Part shown: positions 4,591-18,745 of the stretch, one piece after another
How the letters are laid out: each line of letters opens with the position of its first letter
Numbering within the stretch: position 1 is the first letter of the stretch
Assembly: GCA_965232485.1 (NCBI GenBank)
Contig: OZ246975.1
Span: 1,067,246 to 1,131,245 of the forward strand
From: Rhodothermales bacterium
Lineage (GTDB): Bacteria; Bacteroidota; Rhodothermia; Rhodothermales; VXPQ01
Length of the DNA: 64,000 nt
Reading direction: 5' to 3'
Notes under the pieces: generated by a model
Databases searched by the model: none
The model's input: the letters and a program-made list of their open reading frames with translations, nothing else
What the model was told of the DNA's origin: nothing
Made by a program: the position numbers and the translations under genes

Positions 4591-5358
4591 CTACTCATGC
4601 TCCTTCACATAGATATTACGGAACTGTACGAGCGCGGGCGGGCTCACCCATTCCCCTGCGTCGTTCTTGTGGCCATGGTGCTGCAACCCGATGGGACCGC
4701 AGTCGGGAATTTCATTCAGGAAAATGCGGTCGATGACGAGCTGGCCATTGATCCAGATGGTCATAAACTTGCCCCGTACGACGATTTTCGACGCGTTCCA
4801 CTCCCCGATGGCATTGTCCGCATTGACGAGCGGCAAGGCGGCCCGACGAACTTCCGGCGGCTGGTTCCGATCCATTCGGTAGCCATAGACTTCCCCGGAA
4901 CCGTACGGCCAGTTCCAAATGTTGTGCTGGGCCTTGCCGTGGCCGCGCGGGAGAATGCCCGAATCGGAATCGGGCACGGACATCACCATGGGCTTGCCGT
5001 CCTGATCCATCTTGTGCGTGCCGTCTGCAAGGATGATGGGCACATTCGGATTCGCGTACGGCTCCACGGTCGTAATGCGCCAGTCGATCTTGAGCGTGTA
5101 ATCGCAGTAATCTTTTTCCGTCCAGAGGCTCTTGTCTCCTTCCGCCTCGCTTTCTGCGTCATAGTCGATCACGCCGTCCATCACCTTCCAATGGCCGCCG
5201 TCGCCTTCGGGAATGACCCAGCCGTCGAAATTTTCTCCATTGAATATGGACGCATAGCCCTCGGGGGCCTCCATCTGAGCATGCGCCGTCCGAGGCGCAG
5301 CGCACAGCGCGAGCAACAGAATCATGCAGAGCGAAAGTGCGTAGCGTGTCGATTTCAT
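4591..5358 (-). CDS. DUF1080 (3-keto-disaccharide hydrolase-like) family protein, secreted
   Basis: Signal peptide MKSTRYALSLCMILLLALCAAPRTAHAQ. Family-typical N-terminus (FNGENFDGWVIPEGDGGHWKVMDGVIDYD) and C-terminus (WINGQLV..GPIGLQHHG..VQFRNIYVKE). Confidence 0.85.
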   Translation of the reverse strand: MKSTRYALSLCMILLLALCAAPRTAHAQMEAPEGYASIFNGENFDGWVIPEGDGGHWKVMDGVIDYDAESEAEGDKSLWTEKDYCDYTLKIDWRITTVEPYANPNVPIILADGTHKMDQDGKPMVMSVPDSDSGILPRGHGKAQHNIWNWPYGSGEVYGYRMDRNQPPEVRRAALPLVNADNAIGEWNASKIVVRGKFMTIWINGQLVIDRIFLNEIPDCGPIGLQHHGHKNDAGEWVSPPALVQFRNIYVKEHE

Positions 5359-13265: not shown

Positions 13266-14213
13266 ATGCGGGAAACCATGAAAGGCCCGGATCATGAGGG
13301 CAATCAGGCGCTTCTGGGCGTCCAGCTCAAGGATATTGAAAAAACGCTTCCCCTCCGGGTACTCTCCGAAGAAGACTGGGAGCGCTGGAAAACCTGGGGC
13401 TATGTGATCGTGCGCGACGCCATCCCCCCCGACCATATCGAGCGTCTGAAGGCTTTTTTGTGGGAATTTCAGGAAATGGATCCCAACAACCCGTCCACAT
13501 GGAGCGCCACGGACCGGCGGGCGCACGGGATGGCGGAACTCAACAACTCGGGCATGGTGGAGGTATACAATCACCAGTTCCTGTGGGATACCCGGCAAGC
13601 GCAGCGGGTATACGACGCCTATGTAGATATCTGGGACCGCGAAGACTTGTGGGTCACCATCGACCGGGCGAACCTGAACACGCCGAACCGGGACGCGCGC
13701 AAGTTTGGAGGCTTCATTCACTGGGACGTGGACACGTCGCAGGATCCGCTGCCCGTCAATGTGCAGGGCGTATTGTCCCTCGTGGATACGAACGACAAGG
13801 TCGGAGGATTGCAATGCGTGCCCGAATTGTTCCGGGTCTTCGACGAATGGGTCAAAACGCAGCCTGCGGACAGGGACCCGTTCCGGCCGGACACGACCGG
13901 GTTCGAAGTGCAGTTCATCCCGCTGCGCGCCGGGGACCTGATTATCTGGAACTCGCTGCAAGCGCACGGCATCCGCCCAAACACCTCGAAGGATCGGGTG
14001 CGCATGGCGCAGTACGTCTCCATGTATCCGGCCAACGAAGACAACGAGGAGCTCCGGCAGCAGCGCATCCATTCATGGCGCGAATGCGAACCGCCCAAGG
14101 GCGTCGCCTTCCCGGGCGATCCGCGCGAACTGGAAAAGAAGGTGTACGGAAAAGCCAACCTCAACGATCTCGGCAAGCGTCTGCTGGGACTGGAGCGCTG
14201 GAATGGGGCATGA
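13266..14213 (+). CDS. Phytanoyl-CoA dioxygenase (PhyH) family Fe(II)/2-oxoglutarate oxygenase
   Basis: WGYVIVRDAIPPDHIERL.., H-x-D facial-triad motif in GGFIHWDVD, distal ..LQAHGIRPNTSKDRVRMAQYV. Start moved to the ATG at 13266 because the track start overlaps the upstream CDS. Confidence 0.8.
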   Translation: MRETMKGPDHEGNQALLGVQLKDIEKTLPLRVLSEEDWERWKTWGYVIVRDAIPPDHIERLKAFLWEFQEMDPNNPSTWSATDRRAHGMAELNNSGMVEVYNHQFLWDTRQAQRVYDAYVDIWDREDLWVTIDRANLNTPNRDARKFGGFIHWDVDTSQDPLPVNVQGVLSLVDTNDKVGGLQCVPELFRVFDEWVKTQPADRDPFRPDTTGFEVQFIPLRAGDLIIWNSLQAHGIRPNTSKDRVRMAQYVSMYPANEDNEELRQQRIHSWRECEPPKGVAFPGDPRELEKKVYGKANLNDLGKRLLGLERWNGA

Positions 14214-14237
14214 GCATTGGGCATACTTTCTTAACCG

Positions 14238-15287
14238 TTGCCTCAGAAAACTTTTCCTCCGACGCCATTGGCGCAGCAACTAAAGCGCGAGGCAATATTA
14301 AACCGATCCGGCCTGGAGCTCGGTTCTGGCGCAGTGCCCCCGCTTCGCAAGAAGAATTACTATGTAGTAGCCAAAAAGATGGATGGCGATGCCCCAAAGG
14401 ATTTCATACACGTCTACGCCTACGGACAAGCTCGACGAGATGCACCGCACGCATGGCCCGCGTACATCGCCAAGGTAGGGCACAAGTGGTATCCCAATGA
14501 ATCGATCACGGAGCATCTGCTCACCCGGATAGGGGAGTTGCTCGGCCTGGAGATGGCGCAATCCTCCCTCCGGTCAGCCCATGGCCAAATCCGTTTTTTG
14601 AGTCGATATTTTCTCGATTCCAAACAAAATCTCGTTCACGGAACCGAGATATTTGGGGGATATCTCGAAGACGATCAATTCGTGAAGGAAGTAGAAAAGG
14701 CCGGTGCTGATCGGGATTTGTTTACGTTCCAATTCGTCCACAAAGCAATTTCTTCGGAATTTCCTGGTCAGGCGCCCGCCATTTTGGAAGAGTATGTCCG
14801 CATGCTCGCCTTCGACGCCATCGTGGGCAATAACGACCGGCACCATTATAATTGGGGAATCGTGGTCCGCCCCCGCCCCCACCCTGACCATATACCATAT
14901 TTTTCGCCGATTTACGACAGCGCCCGGGGACTTTTCTGGAACGATCCGGAGGAAAAACTTCAAGCCGTTGAACAGGATCCGGATCCAAAACGGTTGCGGA
15001 CGTTCCTTGATCGGTACATAAAAAAATCGCGGCCAAAGACCGGCTGGGACGGAGAAAATAACCTCAATCATATCTCGCTGATCCGCAACATTTACCAAAC
15101 CTATCCCGATTTTCGCCCAGCGCTGGCGAATCTTTGCCACTCCCAACTCGTAGAAAAAGTGCGGCATGTGCTCGACAGTGAATTCCGTCCACTCATGAGC
15201 GCCTTGCGCCGGAGGATGATCCTGCGTTGCCTGCAACGGCGCCTGGAATTGTTATCCGATGCTCTGCAAACCGGGAATGCCCCATGA
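14238..15287 (+). CDS. HipA-C-like Ser/Thr kinase (HipT-like; lacks the HipA N-terminal subdomain)
   Basis: Catalytic-loop motif AFDAIVGNNDRHHYNWG and metal-binding FSPIYDSARG, as in the HipA kinase core. Start uncertain: TTG at 14238, first ATG at 14379. Confidence 0.75.
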   Translation: MPQKTFPPTPLAQQLKREAILNRSGLELGSGAVPPLRKKNYYVVAKKMDGDAPKDFIHVYAYGQARRDAPHAWPAYIAKVGHKWYPNESITEHLLTRIGELLGLEMAQSSLRSAHGQIRFLSRYFLDSKQNLVHGTEIFGGYLEDDQFVKEVEKAGADRDLFTFQFVHKAISSEFPGQAPAILEEYVRMLAFDAIVGNNDRHHYNWGIVVRPRPHPDHIPYFSPIYDSARGLFWNDPEEKLQAVEQDPDPKRLRTFLDRYIKKSRPKTGWDGENNLNHISLIRNIYQTYPDFRPALANLCHSQLVEKVRHVLDSEFRPLMSALRRRMILRCLQRRLELLSDALQTGNAP

Positions 15288-15721
15288 TCGAAAACCTGAA
15301 AAAAATACTATCCCGGGAAGGGGGTCGCGAGTACGTCCAACCTTCAACGGAGGAAAAAGCCGACTTCCTGTTGCGCGTACGCGAGCGCACCGGGCATGCA
15401 CTGGATGTAGGGCGCCTGTCTCTCCGCAAGGGAAAGTGGCATTTCGAGTACACCGATGACTTCCGGCGCCAAACGGATATCCGCCCCATCGTGAATTTTC
15501 CCAACCTTGACAAACATTATGAATCCGCTACGCTGTGGCCGTTTTTCGTAATCCGTATCCCCGGTCTGAAGCAGCCCGCGGTCCAGCGCGAAATCAGGGA
15601 GAAGAAACTCGACGAACGCAATGAGGCCCAACTCCTCAAGCATTTCGGAAAAACCTCTATCGCCAATCCGTTCATCCTGATCCCGCAGGACGAACTATCG
15701 CCCCCCGCAACCGGGCCGTAG
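15284..15721 (+). CDS. HipA N-terminal-subdomain-like small protein (HipS-like)
   Basis: The ATG at 15284 overlaps the kinase stop (ATGA). VGRLSLRKGKWHFEYTDDFRRQTDIRPIVNFP..YESATLWPFFVIRIPG..LLKHFGKTSIANPFIL resembles the HipA N-terminal 'coupling' domain. Confidence 0.6.
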   Translation: MIENLKKILSREGGREYVQPSTEEKADFLLRVRERTGHALDVGRLSLRKGKWHFEYTDDFRRQTDIRPIVNFPNLDKHYESATLWPFFVIRIPGLKQPAVQREIREKKLDERNEAQLLKHFGKTSIANPFILIPQDELSPPATGP

Positions 15722-15842
15722 CGAGCGAGGCCATATATTCGGCCCGATTGTTCGCCGCCGACGCCGCATAGTCGTCTGGAGCACGAGAAAGTCCGGGGGC
15801 TTACCTTGTTCCCGGACTTTTTCGCCATATTCGAAGCAAGAC

Positions 15843-17738
15843 ATGCCTGACAATATCGTCAAAGGCAGAAAGCGCGCAGAAATCCATAGCGACAGCAGAT
15901 CCAACCTTCGTACGCAAACCCTGCTGCTGCTCCTGCTTGCGTGGACGGCCTTGCCAAACAGGACCGCCGCGCAGCCATCCGCCCAGGCTATCGTTTCCGG
16001 AGAGCGGATGCTGTATCACCCGATCCGCATCACGTTCGAGGGCCCGGAAGCATCCGAAACCGGCACGCCGAACCCGTTTCGCGACTACCGGCTGAACGTA
16101 ACGTTCCGCCATGAGGAAACGGGCGAGCAACTCGTCGCGCCGGGCTATTTCGCCGCCGACGGAAACGCCGCGGACACCGGAGCCGATTCGGGGAACCGGT
16201 GGCGCGTCCATTTTACGCCCCGCCGCGTCGGAACCTGGACCTGGCGCGCTTCCTTCCGAACGGGAACCGATGTGGCGATCCGGCTGGCTCCCCTGGCAGG
16301 CGCGCCTGCGGCCTTCGACGGCGCGCGCGGCGCATTCGCCATATTCGAAACCGACAAAACCGGACCGGATTTTCGAGGCAAGGGCATGCTGCGCTATGTC
16401 GGAGCGCATTATCTGCGCTTCGACGACGGTTCCTGGTTTCTGAAAGGCGGCGCGGACAGCCCGGAAACGCTGCTGGCGTACGAAGATTTCGACGGAACTT
16501 CCGCGCATGCGGACAATGCGCCGCTCAAAACCTGGGCGCCGCACATCCGGGACTGGAACGAGGGCGATCCCGTCTGGCGAGGCGGCAAGGGCAAGGGGCT
16601 TGTCGGCGCCCTGAATTATCTGGCTTCAGAGGGCCTGAACGCCGTTTCGTTCCTTACGATGAATGTCGAGGGGGATGGCAAGAACGTGTGGCCCTGGATC
16701 CGGCGCGACGTCCGCGACCGGTTCGACGTCTCAAAACTCGCGCAATGGGAGCGCGTCTTCGCCCATGCCGACAGCCTGGGCCTTTACCTGCATTTCAAAA
16801 CGCAGGAAACGGAAAACGATCTGTTGCTGGACGGAGGCGAACTGGGCCCGGAGCGCAAACTGTATTACCGGGAACTGGCGGCGCGTTTCGGACATCACCT
16901 TGCCCTGAACTGGAATCTGGGCGAAGAAAACGACATCTGGGAAGAGCTTGACGATCCGAAGCAATACCGAATCCGGTCGTATGCGGAATATATTCGCGCG
17001 CTGGACCCCTACGACCATCCGATCGTGATCCATACCTATCCGAACCAGCACATAGAGGCGTACACGCCTTTGCTGGGCGCTTCTTCCGAACTGGCGGGAA
17101 TGTCCTTGCAAACGCACTGGAACCGGGTGCATGAGCATACGCTGTTGTGGCGGCGCGCCTCGGCGGCCGCGGGCAAAAAATGGGTGATCGCCAACGACGA
17201 ACAGGGCGATGCGCAGACCGGCGTCATGCCGGACGGTCCGGAAAGCAACCACGACGATATTCGGCGGCGCGTCATCTGGGGGCACCTTATGGCGGGGGGA
17301 GCCGGGCTGGAATTCTACTTCGGCTACCAGCATCCGCACAACGACCTGAACCTGGAGGATTTCCGGAGCCGGGACCGGTTCTGGGATTACGTACGCCACG
17401 CCCTGCATTTCTTCGACGCCTGGCTGCCCTACCGGGAAATGGCGCCGGACGACGGCCTTGCGCCGGGAGACCGGTACGCACTGGCGAAGCCGGGGGAAAT
17501 CTATGCGGCGTATGTACCGGAGGCCTCGCCGGGCGACGAGGACATATCCCTGAACGTACTTCCGGGTAACTACTCTGTGCACTGGTACGATCCGGCGGAA
17601 GGCGGCGCGCTGCAAACCGGCGGCGTGGCGAGGGTCGAGCGCATGGCGGGAGACGACGCGGTATCCATTGGCGCGCCGCCGCCCGGCCCGAACGGCAAGG
17701 ATTGGGTTGCGCTGGTGCGGGCGGAGGAGGAAGAATAA
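15843..17738 (+). CDS. DUF5060-domain protein with GH5-like (cellulase-superfamily) catalytic region, secreted
   Basis: Signal-like LLLLLLAWTALPNRTAAQ. DUF5060-type N-terminus (YHPIRITFEGPEASETGTPNPFRDYRLNVTFRHEETGEQLVAPGYFAADGN..WRVHFTPRRVGTWTW), then FLKGGADSPETLLAYEDFDGT.. and a TIM-barrel-like region. Confidence 0.75.
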   Translation: MPDNIVKGRKRAEIHSDSRSNLRTQTLLLLLLAWTALPNRTAAQPSAQAIVSGERMLYHPIRITFEGPEASETGTPNPFRDYRLNVTFRHEETGEQLVAPGYFAADGNAADTGADSGNRWRVHFTPRRVGTWTWRASFRTGTDVAIRLAPLAGAPAAFDGARGAFAIFETDKTGPDFRGKGMLRYVGAHYLRFDDGSWFLKGGADSPETLLAYEDFDGTSAHADNAPLKTWAPHIRDWNEGDPVWRGGKGKGLVGALNYLASEGLNAVSFLTMNVEGDGKNVWPWIRRDVRDRFDVSKLAQWERVFAHADSLGLYLHFKTQETENDLLLDGGELGPERKLYYRELAARFGHHLALNWNLGEENDIWEELDDPKQYRIRSYAEYIRALDPYDHPIVIHTYPNQHIEAYTPLLGASSELAGMSLQTHWNRVHEHTLLWRRASAAAGKKWVIANDEQGDAQTGVMPDGPESNHDDIRRRVIWGHLMAGGAGLEFYFGYQHPHNDLNLEDFRSRDRFWDYVRHALHFFDAWLPYREMAPDDGLAPGDRYALAKPGEIYAAYVPEASPGDEDISLNVLPGNYSVHWYDPAEGGALQTGGVARVERMAGDDAVSIGAPPPGPNGKDWVALVRAEEEE

Positions 17739-17757: not shown

Positions 17758-17931
17758 TCAGGCGCTTGCCCGGGAAGCGAAGCCCGCACGGATCGGGTCG
17801 AGGCAAAAAGTCACTCTGACGTGCGTGGTCTCGGCGACGATCTCGGGTTCGGTTCCATTGAACTCGCGCATGGCGCGGCGCATGACGGGCCACCCGCGCC
17901 CGCGCTGTTCCATGAAACCCATCGCGACCAT
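17758..17931 (-). pseudogene. Orphan C-terminal fragment resembling the HATPase_c_4 / RecG-like 'putative DNA-binding' domain
   Basis: My own translation of a frame not in the track: MVAMGFMEQRGRGWPVMRRAMREFNGTEPEIVAETTHVRVTFCLDPIRAGFASRASA*. The pattern G-F-x-E-x-R-G-x-G..M...M...G...P.I......V.VTF is typical of that C-terminus. No upstream body exists (in-frame stop about 17960). Confidence 0.35.
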
Positions 17932-17936
17932 AACAG

Positions 17937-18745
17937 AAAGCGCTGTTCGCCACGAGCCCGAACCTGCTCATTCAGATTGCGATCCTGTGGTAAGGGAGCA
18001 CCGATATAGACGCGCAGGCCATCGAGAAAAGTGCTCTTGCCGGTCATGCTCCCGCCTATGATACAGGTCAGGTCAGGACTTAATTCAAAACGCTTTTTTG
18101 CTTTCCCAGGCCCAGTTGCGCCAAAAAAAGAAGCCGATCCATTGGCCTCAACGCATTTGAGCCAGGGACGCCGGTTCGCCGCAATGTCGGGGGGATTCGG
18201 GATCGGAACTAATTCCTCCTTGCCATCCTTTTCGTAGGCAATGCGTATCCGCGAATCGCTGGCGATGAACGCCTGACGCAACGCTTCTATTCGCGGACTG
18301 GCGAGTTTCATCCAGGTATAACGCTTCCCAATGTCATCGATAACACAGGCGTCGCTACCGTGGAAGAACGCCTGATAGTTTGTCGCCATCCCATCAGAGA
18401 GCCAAGGGCGGTTCTGAAGTGTATCTAATGTGGCGTGAGGCCGAGTACGCGAACACGGCGTTCCACCGCTCCCTGGAGAAACCGCCGGGCATAAGCCTTA
18501 AGCGCCTCAGGCGATTTAGGATCGCCGCTAACGCCAGTGGGCATCTTCGCCCTGCATCCAGGAATATCGTCTATGGTGTGAATGTGCAAATCCGCTTTGA
18601 ACCACCGCGCACCCGATACCTCGCGGCGCCAATCGTCGGTCTCTTGTCGCACAAACGCCATTATACAATCTCCGGGCACATGCGCCCTATCCCGTAAATC
18701 CGGGCAATCTCTTGCTGAAGTTCTTGGGAATCCGCCATGCCGCAA
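17937..18745 (-). pseudogene. Frameshifted, 3'-truncated remnant of a PHP-domain / P-loop ATPase gene (defence-type AAA/ABC-like ATPase)
   Basis: ORF 18425..18745 carries a PHP-type N-terminus: ARWFKADLHIHTIDD..VRVLGLTPH. It continues in a different frame in ORF 17811..18389, which has a Walker A (LTCIIGGSMTGKSTFLDGL). After ..NEQVRARGEQRF the translation becomes low-complexity and the gene lacks the several hundred residues expected downstream. Confidence 0.55.

Follow-up and report, generated by a model that had tools for sequence, protein, structure and literature searches.

What does a HipA-like kinase gene do without a HipB gene beside it, when the part of HipA that the kinase lacks appears to be encoded by the next gene downstream? 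This question is raised by two adjacent genes at positions 14238 to 15721 of a 64,000-nucleotide stretch of the genome of a Rhodothermales bacterium (assembly GCA_965232485.1, contig OZ246975.1, positions 1,067,246 to 1,131,245, forward strand), to which we refer as the window. The original prediction, made from the letters of the window, was of a split, order-permuted HipA-like kinase module. We consider it probable that the pair is a module of the hipJS type, in which a kinase toxin is combined with a HipS-like neutraliser but no DNA-binding autoregulator, and which moves as a mobile cassette, most likely with a role in abortive-infection defence.

The kinase and the HipS-like protein

The kinase gene (14238..15287, + strand) is predicted to encode a short Ser/Thr kinase of the HipA superfamily, the putative toxin, with 349 amino acids (aa) from a TTG start; an in-frame TTG at 14268 would yield 339 aa, and the orthologue in a sister species (G004) uses the corresponding start. 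The protein matched the Pfam profile HipA_C over residues 74-238 (38.4 bits; cut-off 30.5) and the PADLOC profile PDC-M03A (3e-30, 104 bits), and an NCBIfam profile search returned no match. The Pfam search also gave no match to Couple_hipA in this protein, so N-subdomain-1 of HipA is absent from it.

We compared the Gly-rich loop, the ATP-binding Lys, the catalytic Asp/Asn and the Mg-binding Asp in an alignment of 60 sequences of the kinase family. Four residues of the Gly-rich loop (GDAPK, G50-D-A-P-K54) are invariant (G50, A52, P53 and K54), as are D200 and N205 in IVGNNDRHHYNWG, D227 in SPIYDSARG, and a further set of positions comprising K79, E88, E92, D193, N198, R201 and H202. Thus, as judged from the alignment, the catalytic and Mg-binding residues of the kinase are intact, since the positions are invariant in the family and present here; the motifs were assigned by alignment logic with HipA sequences from Table S1 of PMC8262856.

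The AlphaFold2 model of the kinase has a mean predicted local distance difference test score (pLDDT) of 93.1 and a predicted template modelling score of 0.92. When this model was compared to the PDB with Foldseek, the top match was CtkA (JHP0940) of Helicobacter pylori (PDB 3akj, 3akk and 3akl), with E 2.5e-11, template modelling (TM) scores of 0.65/0.79 and 17-19% identity, followed by HipT (Legionella and E. coli) and HipA at E about 1e-6. A profile of the kinase family searched against PDB sequences likewise ranked CtkA (7.9e-15) ahead of HipT from Legionella pneumophila (0.013) and E. coli (0.08). By fold and by sequence profile alike, no solved structure comes closer to the kinase than that of CtkA. 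The alignment to CtkA begins only at residue 85. Members of the kinase family are 330-350 aa long, with about 47 residues preceding the Gly-rich loop. This leading segment (residues 1-47; window 14238-14380) is itself conserved among family members, Ser24-Gly25 (N-x-S-G-F-E) being nearly invariant.

The second gene (15284..15721, + strand), the putative neutraliser or antitoxin, encodes 145 aa from the ATG at 15284, in an open reading frame (ORF) that is open from 15227, and its product is predicted to have the fold of HipA N-subdomain-1. The small protein, which carries a conserved LWPFF/RIP motif, matched both Couple_hipA (25.4 bits; cut-off 22.5) and TIGR03071 (28.9 bits; cut-off 27.8). It scored higher against HipN-type profiles than against Couple_hipA, matching PADLOC PDC-M03B at 4.9e-14 (50 bits), although this match covers only profile positions 9-116 of 245; Pfam and PADLOC profile searches found no HIRAN domain in the 145 aa. 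The AlphaFold2 model of the protein (pLDDT 82.8) had a single significant fold match in the PDB, to Legionella HipS (7vkb_B; E 6.8e-4, TM 0.78, root-mean-square deviation 2.5). A single-sequence search of the PDB gave no significant match (E at least 0.65), but a profile of the HipS-like family had as its top three PDB matches HipS of H. influenzae, E. coli O127 and Legionella.

The start codon of the HipS-like gene overlaps the stop codon of the kinase gene, as read from the sequence (ATGA, 15284..15287, + strand; kinase stop TGA, HipS-like start ATG), and this overlap implies that the two genes would be translationally coupled. No match to a helix-turn-helix (HTH) family was found among the flanking and antisense ORFs of 26-106 aa around the module, and clustering of the neighbours at 72 related loci revealed no third gene conserved beside the pair. 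We rejected a hidden HipB as a candidate, with no HTH-matching ORF in the gaps or on the antisense strand and no partner gene kept in the 72 loci.

These results agree closely with the original prediction, which had described a 349-aa ORF with the motifs of the HipA kinase core but without the N-terminal subdomain, followed through an ATGA overlap at 15284 by an ORF resembling just that subdomain, in the order kinase then N-subdomain and with no HTH gene. The two profiles it had named for a check, HipA_C and Couple_hipA, both score above their cut-offs, the catalytic Asp/Asn are kept on alignment (D200 and N205), and the gaps of 24 and 121 nt on either side of the pair, in which it had suggested looking for a small HTH ORF, contain none.

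Pairing, one-sided decay and spread of the family

We considered a locus intact if its kinase ORF was at least 300 aa long, and we counted a HipS-like ORF if it was on the same strand and at least 120 aa long. By these measures, all 61 intact-kinase loci (61/61) have a HipS-like ORF directly downstream, with its stop 371-453 nt after the kinase stop, and not one of the 61 intact kinases is without it. The pairing spans Rhodothermales, Latescibacterota, Verrucomicrobiota, Bacteroidota, Planctomycetota and a few Firmicutes, and is likewise seen in 3 viral contigs.

The two genes do not decay alike, however, and an intact HipS-like gene stands beside a broken or deleted kinase at 12 loci at least. 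Among the sister genomes, G004 and G011 keep an intact pair at about 80% identity to that of the window, and both genes are absent from G010, which has an empty site. The HipS ORF is intact in G005, in which the kinase is deleted; in G007, in which only the last 50 kinase codons are left; in G003, in which a 5' truncation leaves kinase residues 99-349; and in G002, in which a one-base (+1) insertion falls inside the NNDRHH/YNWG catalytic loop. This insertion is an extra A (L034:about 4609-4611, equivalent to window 14858-14860) that changes CACCAT-TATAAT to CACCATATATAAT and shifts the kinase frame; it lies where the RHH and YNW codons of the catalytic loop meet, outside a homopolymer, in a long-read metagenome assembly, and may be either a mutation or an error.

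Outside the genus, the kinase is interrupted by stops, frameshifts or internal deletions at six loci (L052, L077, L078, L081, L089 and L090), each with an intact HipS-like ORF. At a further locus (L033:2243-4873), a 1.6-kb insertion splits the kinase into a part with residues 11-54 and, about 1.6 kb further downstream, a part with residues 53-345, again with an intact HipS-like ORF; this looks as if an element had inserted. In two genomes of an even 401-genome sample, a HipS gene was found without a kinase match (G322; in G058, within the roughly 1.5 kb fetched upstream). We rejected programmed recoding through a shared frameshift, because the frameshifts in G002, L078, L081 and L089 are at differing positions, as expected of decay or assembly error.

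We also estimated the ratio of nonsynonymous to synonymous substitution rates (dN/dS) for HipS against the window copy, as a gauge of continued function in the orphans. In close relatives, the values are 0.09-0.17 whether or not the gene is orphaned; those of orphan HipS genes (0.12-0.17) are similar to those of paired ones (0.10-0.11), although pairwise values include the time before kinase loss, which limits their weight. As read from these sequences, the one-sided decay fits what a toxin/neutraliser pair predicts, with the kinase as the toxin and HipS as its neutraliser.

The kinase family is large yet patchy. Database searches with the kinase returned 1,745 homologues at E <= 1e-3, the 120 best of which are all 242-414 aa long, and the relatives go by no public name other than "HipA domain-containing protein" or "HipA N-terminal domain-containing protein". 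We collected 75 genome loci, from Rhodothermales (the host order), Latescibacterota, Verrucomicrobiota, many Bacteroidota, Planctomycetota and a few Firmicutes. In an even, phylum-wide sample, the kinase was present in 7 of 401 genomes and 6 of 179 genera, and in a set of 40 close relatives, no genome outside the host genus was found to have it. A phage-borne module as the typical state was rejected, with only 3 relatives among viral contigs. One Latescibacterota contig carries a second HipS-like ORF of 145 aa (L032:8059-8496; E 2.6e-45 to the window protein) 3 kb past its first pair, which could be an orphan copy or belong to a second module.

The pair is also a real indel among species of the host genus. 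The original prediction had pointed to a slightly AT-richer two-gene insert, and indeed GC content is 0.52-0.55 across 14250-15500, compared to 0.60-0.65 in both flanks. In the empty site of G010, sequence matching window 14214 is joined via about 85 bp to sequence matching window 15964 onward. The lower-GC segment whose presence varies between species of the genus (14215..15963) takes in the 5' leader of the following glycosidase gene as well as the pair itself; other species of the genus have partial deletions inside this segment.

At some distant loci the pair is embedded among restriction-modification genes. At 6 loci from Verrucomicrobiota, Saprospiraceae and Planctomycetota (L036, L038, L050, L054, L056 and L057), it is flanked by the hsdM and hsdS genes of type I restriction-modification operons, and at 5 others (L022, L027, L072, L082 and L087) it directly follows a gene for a 1,282-aa DUF7149-DUF7814-Eco57I-TaqI_C methylase/endonuclease (type IIG-like). 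HipA-family kinases with other partners have been validated as kinase-dependent phage defences (PMC13092281), and PDC-M03, which corresponds to hipIN, is a PADLOC defence candidate (PMC13245101), described as an unpublished candidate in PMC11811056.

The sequences and models establish the domains and folds, the intact active site, the strict pairing, the mobility and the one-sided decay; kinase toxicity, its neutralisation, a trigger and a substrate we infer along the following lines. The kinase, which is short and predicted to be catalytically competent, would be the growth-arresting partner. The HipS-like protein would be made from the same mRNA, in step with the kinase through the ATGA coupling, and might, as HipS does for HipT, bind the kinase where N-subdomain-1 sits in full-length HipA and thereby silence it. 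Loss or sequestration of the HipS-like protein during infection or stress would then free the kinase. At a guess, since HipA acts on GltX and HipT on TrpS, the substrate of the kinase might likewise be an aminoacyl-tRNA synthetase or another translation factor. The cassette spreads by horizontal transfer and probably serves in defence or addiction; its mobility shows in the empty site in G010, the dip in GC and the presence in 7 of 401 genomes.

Described Hip systems and competing explanations

Hip kinases have been classified by gene context (Gerdes, Baerentsen & Brodersen, mBio 2021; PMC8262856). In that classification, main clade XI (HipI, HipJ, HipL, HipG, HipM and HipF) includes hipIN, in which a short kinase is followed by HipN (HipS-like plus HIRAN; 14 modules), and hipJS, in which the protein encoded after the short kinase is HipS-only and a DNA-binding partner is lacking (2 of 1,239 modules); the short kinases of clade XI are 279-321 aa long, and the paper gives no experimentally analysed module in the clade. 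By layout, judged from gene order and domains, the window pair is hipJS. In both, a bicistron predicted from sequence joins a short, core-only kinase without N-subdomain-1, with its Gly-rich loop near the N terminus (residues 50-54 here), to a downstream gene for a HipS-only protein, and an HTH partner is absent. Nevertheless, the published hipJS modules number 2, compared to more than 1,700 homologues in the window family, and the window kinase (339-349 aa; family 330-350 aa) is longer than the published short clade-XI kinases. The novelty that the original prediction had implied for the permuted order therefore did not survive, since kinase then HipS without an HTH gene is the published hipJS, and kinase then HipS-HIRAN is hipIN. 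The layout was described from sequence in 2021 and is rare in the published tables, yet it is invariable in the large family of the window. The window pair is a further copy of it, possibly one of a CtkA-like clade that is larger than the two published examples.

The family is related to hipIN (PDC-M03), with which it shares gene order and homologous kinase and HipS domains (3e-30 and 4.9e-14), but from which it is distinct. HipI-type PADLOC profiles are the best-scoring family for the window kinase, yet its 104 bits are far below the 286 bits of a true HipI, and its partner lacks HIRAN and scores 50 bits compared to 250 for a true member. Genuine, separate hipIN modules occur in sister species (G001, G004, G005, G006 and G008), as at L012:1339-2987 and likewise in L013, L014 and L015 (these being from G005, G006, G001 and G008), with a further copy in G004. 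They consist of a 297-aa kinase (286 bits to PDC-M03A) and an overlapping 253-aa partner (250 bits to PDC-M03B) with a Pfam HIRAN domain. The window's own genome has no hipIN/PDC-M03 module that we could find, and the window kinase is 26-28% identical to the hipIN kinases of the sister species. We take the two families to be distinct because of this low identity and the gap in scores (104/50 compared to 286/250 bits).

HipBST (E. coli O127, Legionella pneumophila, Haemophilus influenzae) resembles the window pair in that the HipA core kinase (HipT) and N-subdomain-1 (HipS) are separate proteins; HipS is the experimentally shown antitoxin there, and the small protein of the window has the HipS fold. 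The HipBST order, however, is the HTH protein HipB first, then S, then T, compared to kinase then HipS without HipB in the window; the window kinase is closer to CtkA than to HipT; and HipS Trp65 is not conserved in the window protein. Canonical hipBA has a kinase of the same superfamily with the same catalytic motifs, but N-subdomain-1 is fused in HipA and the upstream HTH protein HipB is the antitoxin, unlike the two ORFs without HipB of the window. HipAD, or DS-6 (DefensePredictor, Science 2026; PMC13092281), also joins a HipA-family kinase to a partner other than HipB, and kinase-dependent phage protection has been shown for HipAD, but that partner is a DUF3037/DUF1829 protein and is not HipS-like.

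Several observations weigh against the hipJS-type toxin/neutraliser reading. Trp65 of E. coli HipS is the residue that blocks HipT, as a wedge at the Gly-rich loop (PMC10627512). The region of the small protein that aligns to the E. coli PEGW is RIPGLKQP (family consensus RIPSLxQP), and because the Trp is not conserved, the HipBST mode of inhibition cannot simply be carried over; to judge by the alignment, an inhibitory contact, if there is one, must differ. Control of the kinase by HipA-style autophosphorylation is doubtful in view of the alignment, because the equivalent of HipA Ser150 is Lys47, and of 60 relatives only 29 have Ser/Thr at the position. N-subdomain-1 does not inhibit full-length HipA, in which it belongs to the structure of the enzyme (PMC8262856). 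Part of the one-sided decay is to be expected, since the kinase gene is 2.4 times longer and hence a larger target; the related genomes in the count are not independent, and some kinase frameshifts come from long-read metagenome assemblies, in which they could be errors. Restriction-modification genes adjoin the pair at only 11 of about 72 loci, and the immediate neighbours in the window are metabolic, not defence genes. No experimental test of a hipJS or hipIN member is reported as of the 2021 paper, and our literature search found none later.

The main rival, which we disfavour and consider unlikely, takes the pair to be a split HipA enzyme: the small protein would supply the lid subdomain that the kinase lacks and on which its folding, activity or choice of substrate depends, and the two together would form a regulatory kinase without toxicity. 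The structural role of N-subdomain-1 in full-length HipA and the loss of the inhibitory Trp65 of E. coli HipS both suit this idea, and strict co-occurrence with translational coupling would suit an obligate heterodimer equally well. It is the decay of the loci that speaks against it: a harmless kinase should leave kinase-only loci, and we disfavour the split enzyme because these are absent (0 among 61 intact kinases), whereas HipS-only loci are frequent. The patchiness, the empty site and the embedding in restriction-modification operons are, furthermore, typical of selfish or defence cassettes and not of housekeeping regulators.

We consider two other explanations very improbable. That the kinase is a CtkA-like effector aimed at another organism, with the small protein as its chaperone or immunity factor, is suggested by the PDB description of CtkA as the proinflammatory kinase of a pathogen and by its place as the closest solved relative (fold E 2.5e-11; profile 7.9e-15 compared to 0.013 for HipT). 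CtkA is only 17-19% identical to the window kinase, however, and is outscored by the PADLOC hipIN profiles (104 bits); secretion-system genes are not conserved beside the pair, and the names of the hosts (Rhodothermales, Latescibacterota, Planctomycetota) point to mostly environmental lineages, not animal-associated ones. Nor do we expect the pair to be a functionless remnant in this genome, acquired by an ancestor of the genus and now drifting. The kinase is indeed lost or broken in several sister species, and a promoter/terminator scan found nothing above the shuffle background, with no promoter upstream of the kinase, but both ORFs of the window are intact with all invariant catalytic residues present, HipS dN/dS is about 0.1 compared to intact relatives, and G004 and G011 keep the pair intact at about 80% identity.

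The hipJS and hipIN classes are known from sequence analysis only. If the window module is indeed toxic, neutralised by HipS and phage-protective, a widespread type of kinase-based defence or toxin-antitoxin system would be added, and the result would bear on whether HipS-like proteins generally inhibit core Hip kinases. For the window alone, the finding is an ordinary one; the gains are comparative and lie in the strict pairing, the kinase-first decay, the restriction-modification embedding and CtkA as the nearest structure. Much more tentatively, the pair might belong to a large and distinct clade of CtkA-like kinases with HipS partners, which counts over 1,700 homologues from six phyla or more and all but escaped the 2021 Hip tree. 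Its members could act as stand-alone abortive-infection defences, often in restriction-modification operons, in which the HipS-like protein would keep the kinase inactive up to the time of infection, through a means other than the Trp65 wedge.

Flanking genes and other Hip genes of the host genome

The neighbours of the pair are as originally claimed. Upstream, a PhyH gene has its stop at 14213, 24 nt before the kinase, and downstream, a gene for a DUF5060/apiosidase-like glycosidase begins at 15843, after a gap of 121 nt. About 2 kb downstream of the pair, on the - strand (window 17811-18742), are fragments of a PHP-domain and P-loop ATPase gene in two frames. The ATPase fragment has a weak match to PADLOC Ppl (E 1.1e-5; positions 206-306 of 894), which suggests a degraded defence gene, and it also matches AAA_23/AAA_29. 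Elsewhere, the window's own genome encodes a canonical hipBA system (L001:1378-3077; G000:C1 about 2,003,700-2,005,400, - strand), in which a 446-aa HipA with both Couple_hipA and HipA_C is preceded by an overlapping gene for a 118-aa HTH protein, HipB.

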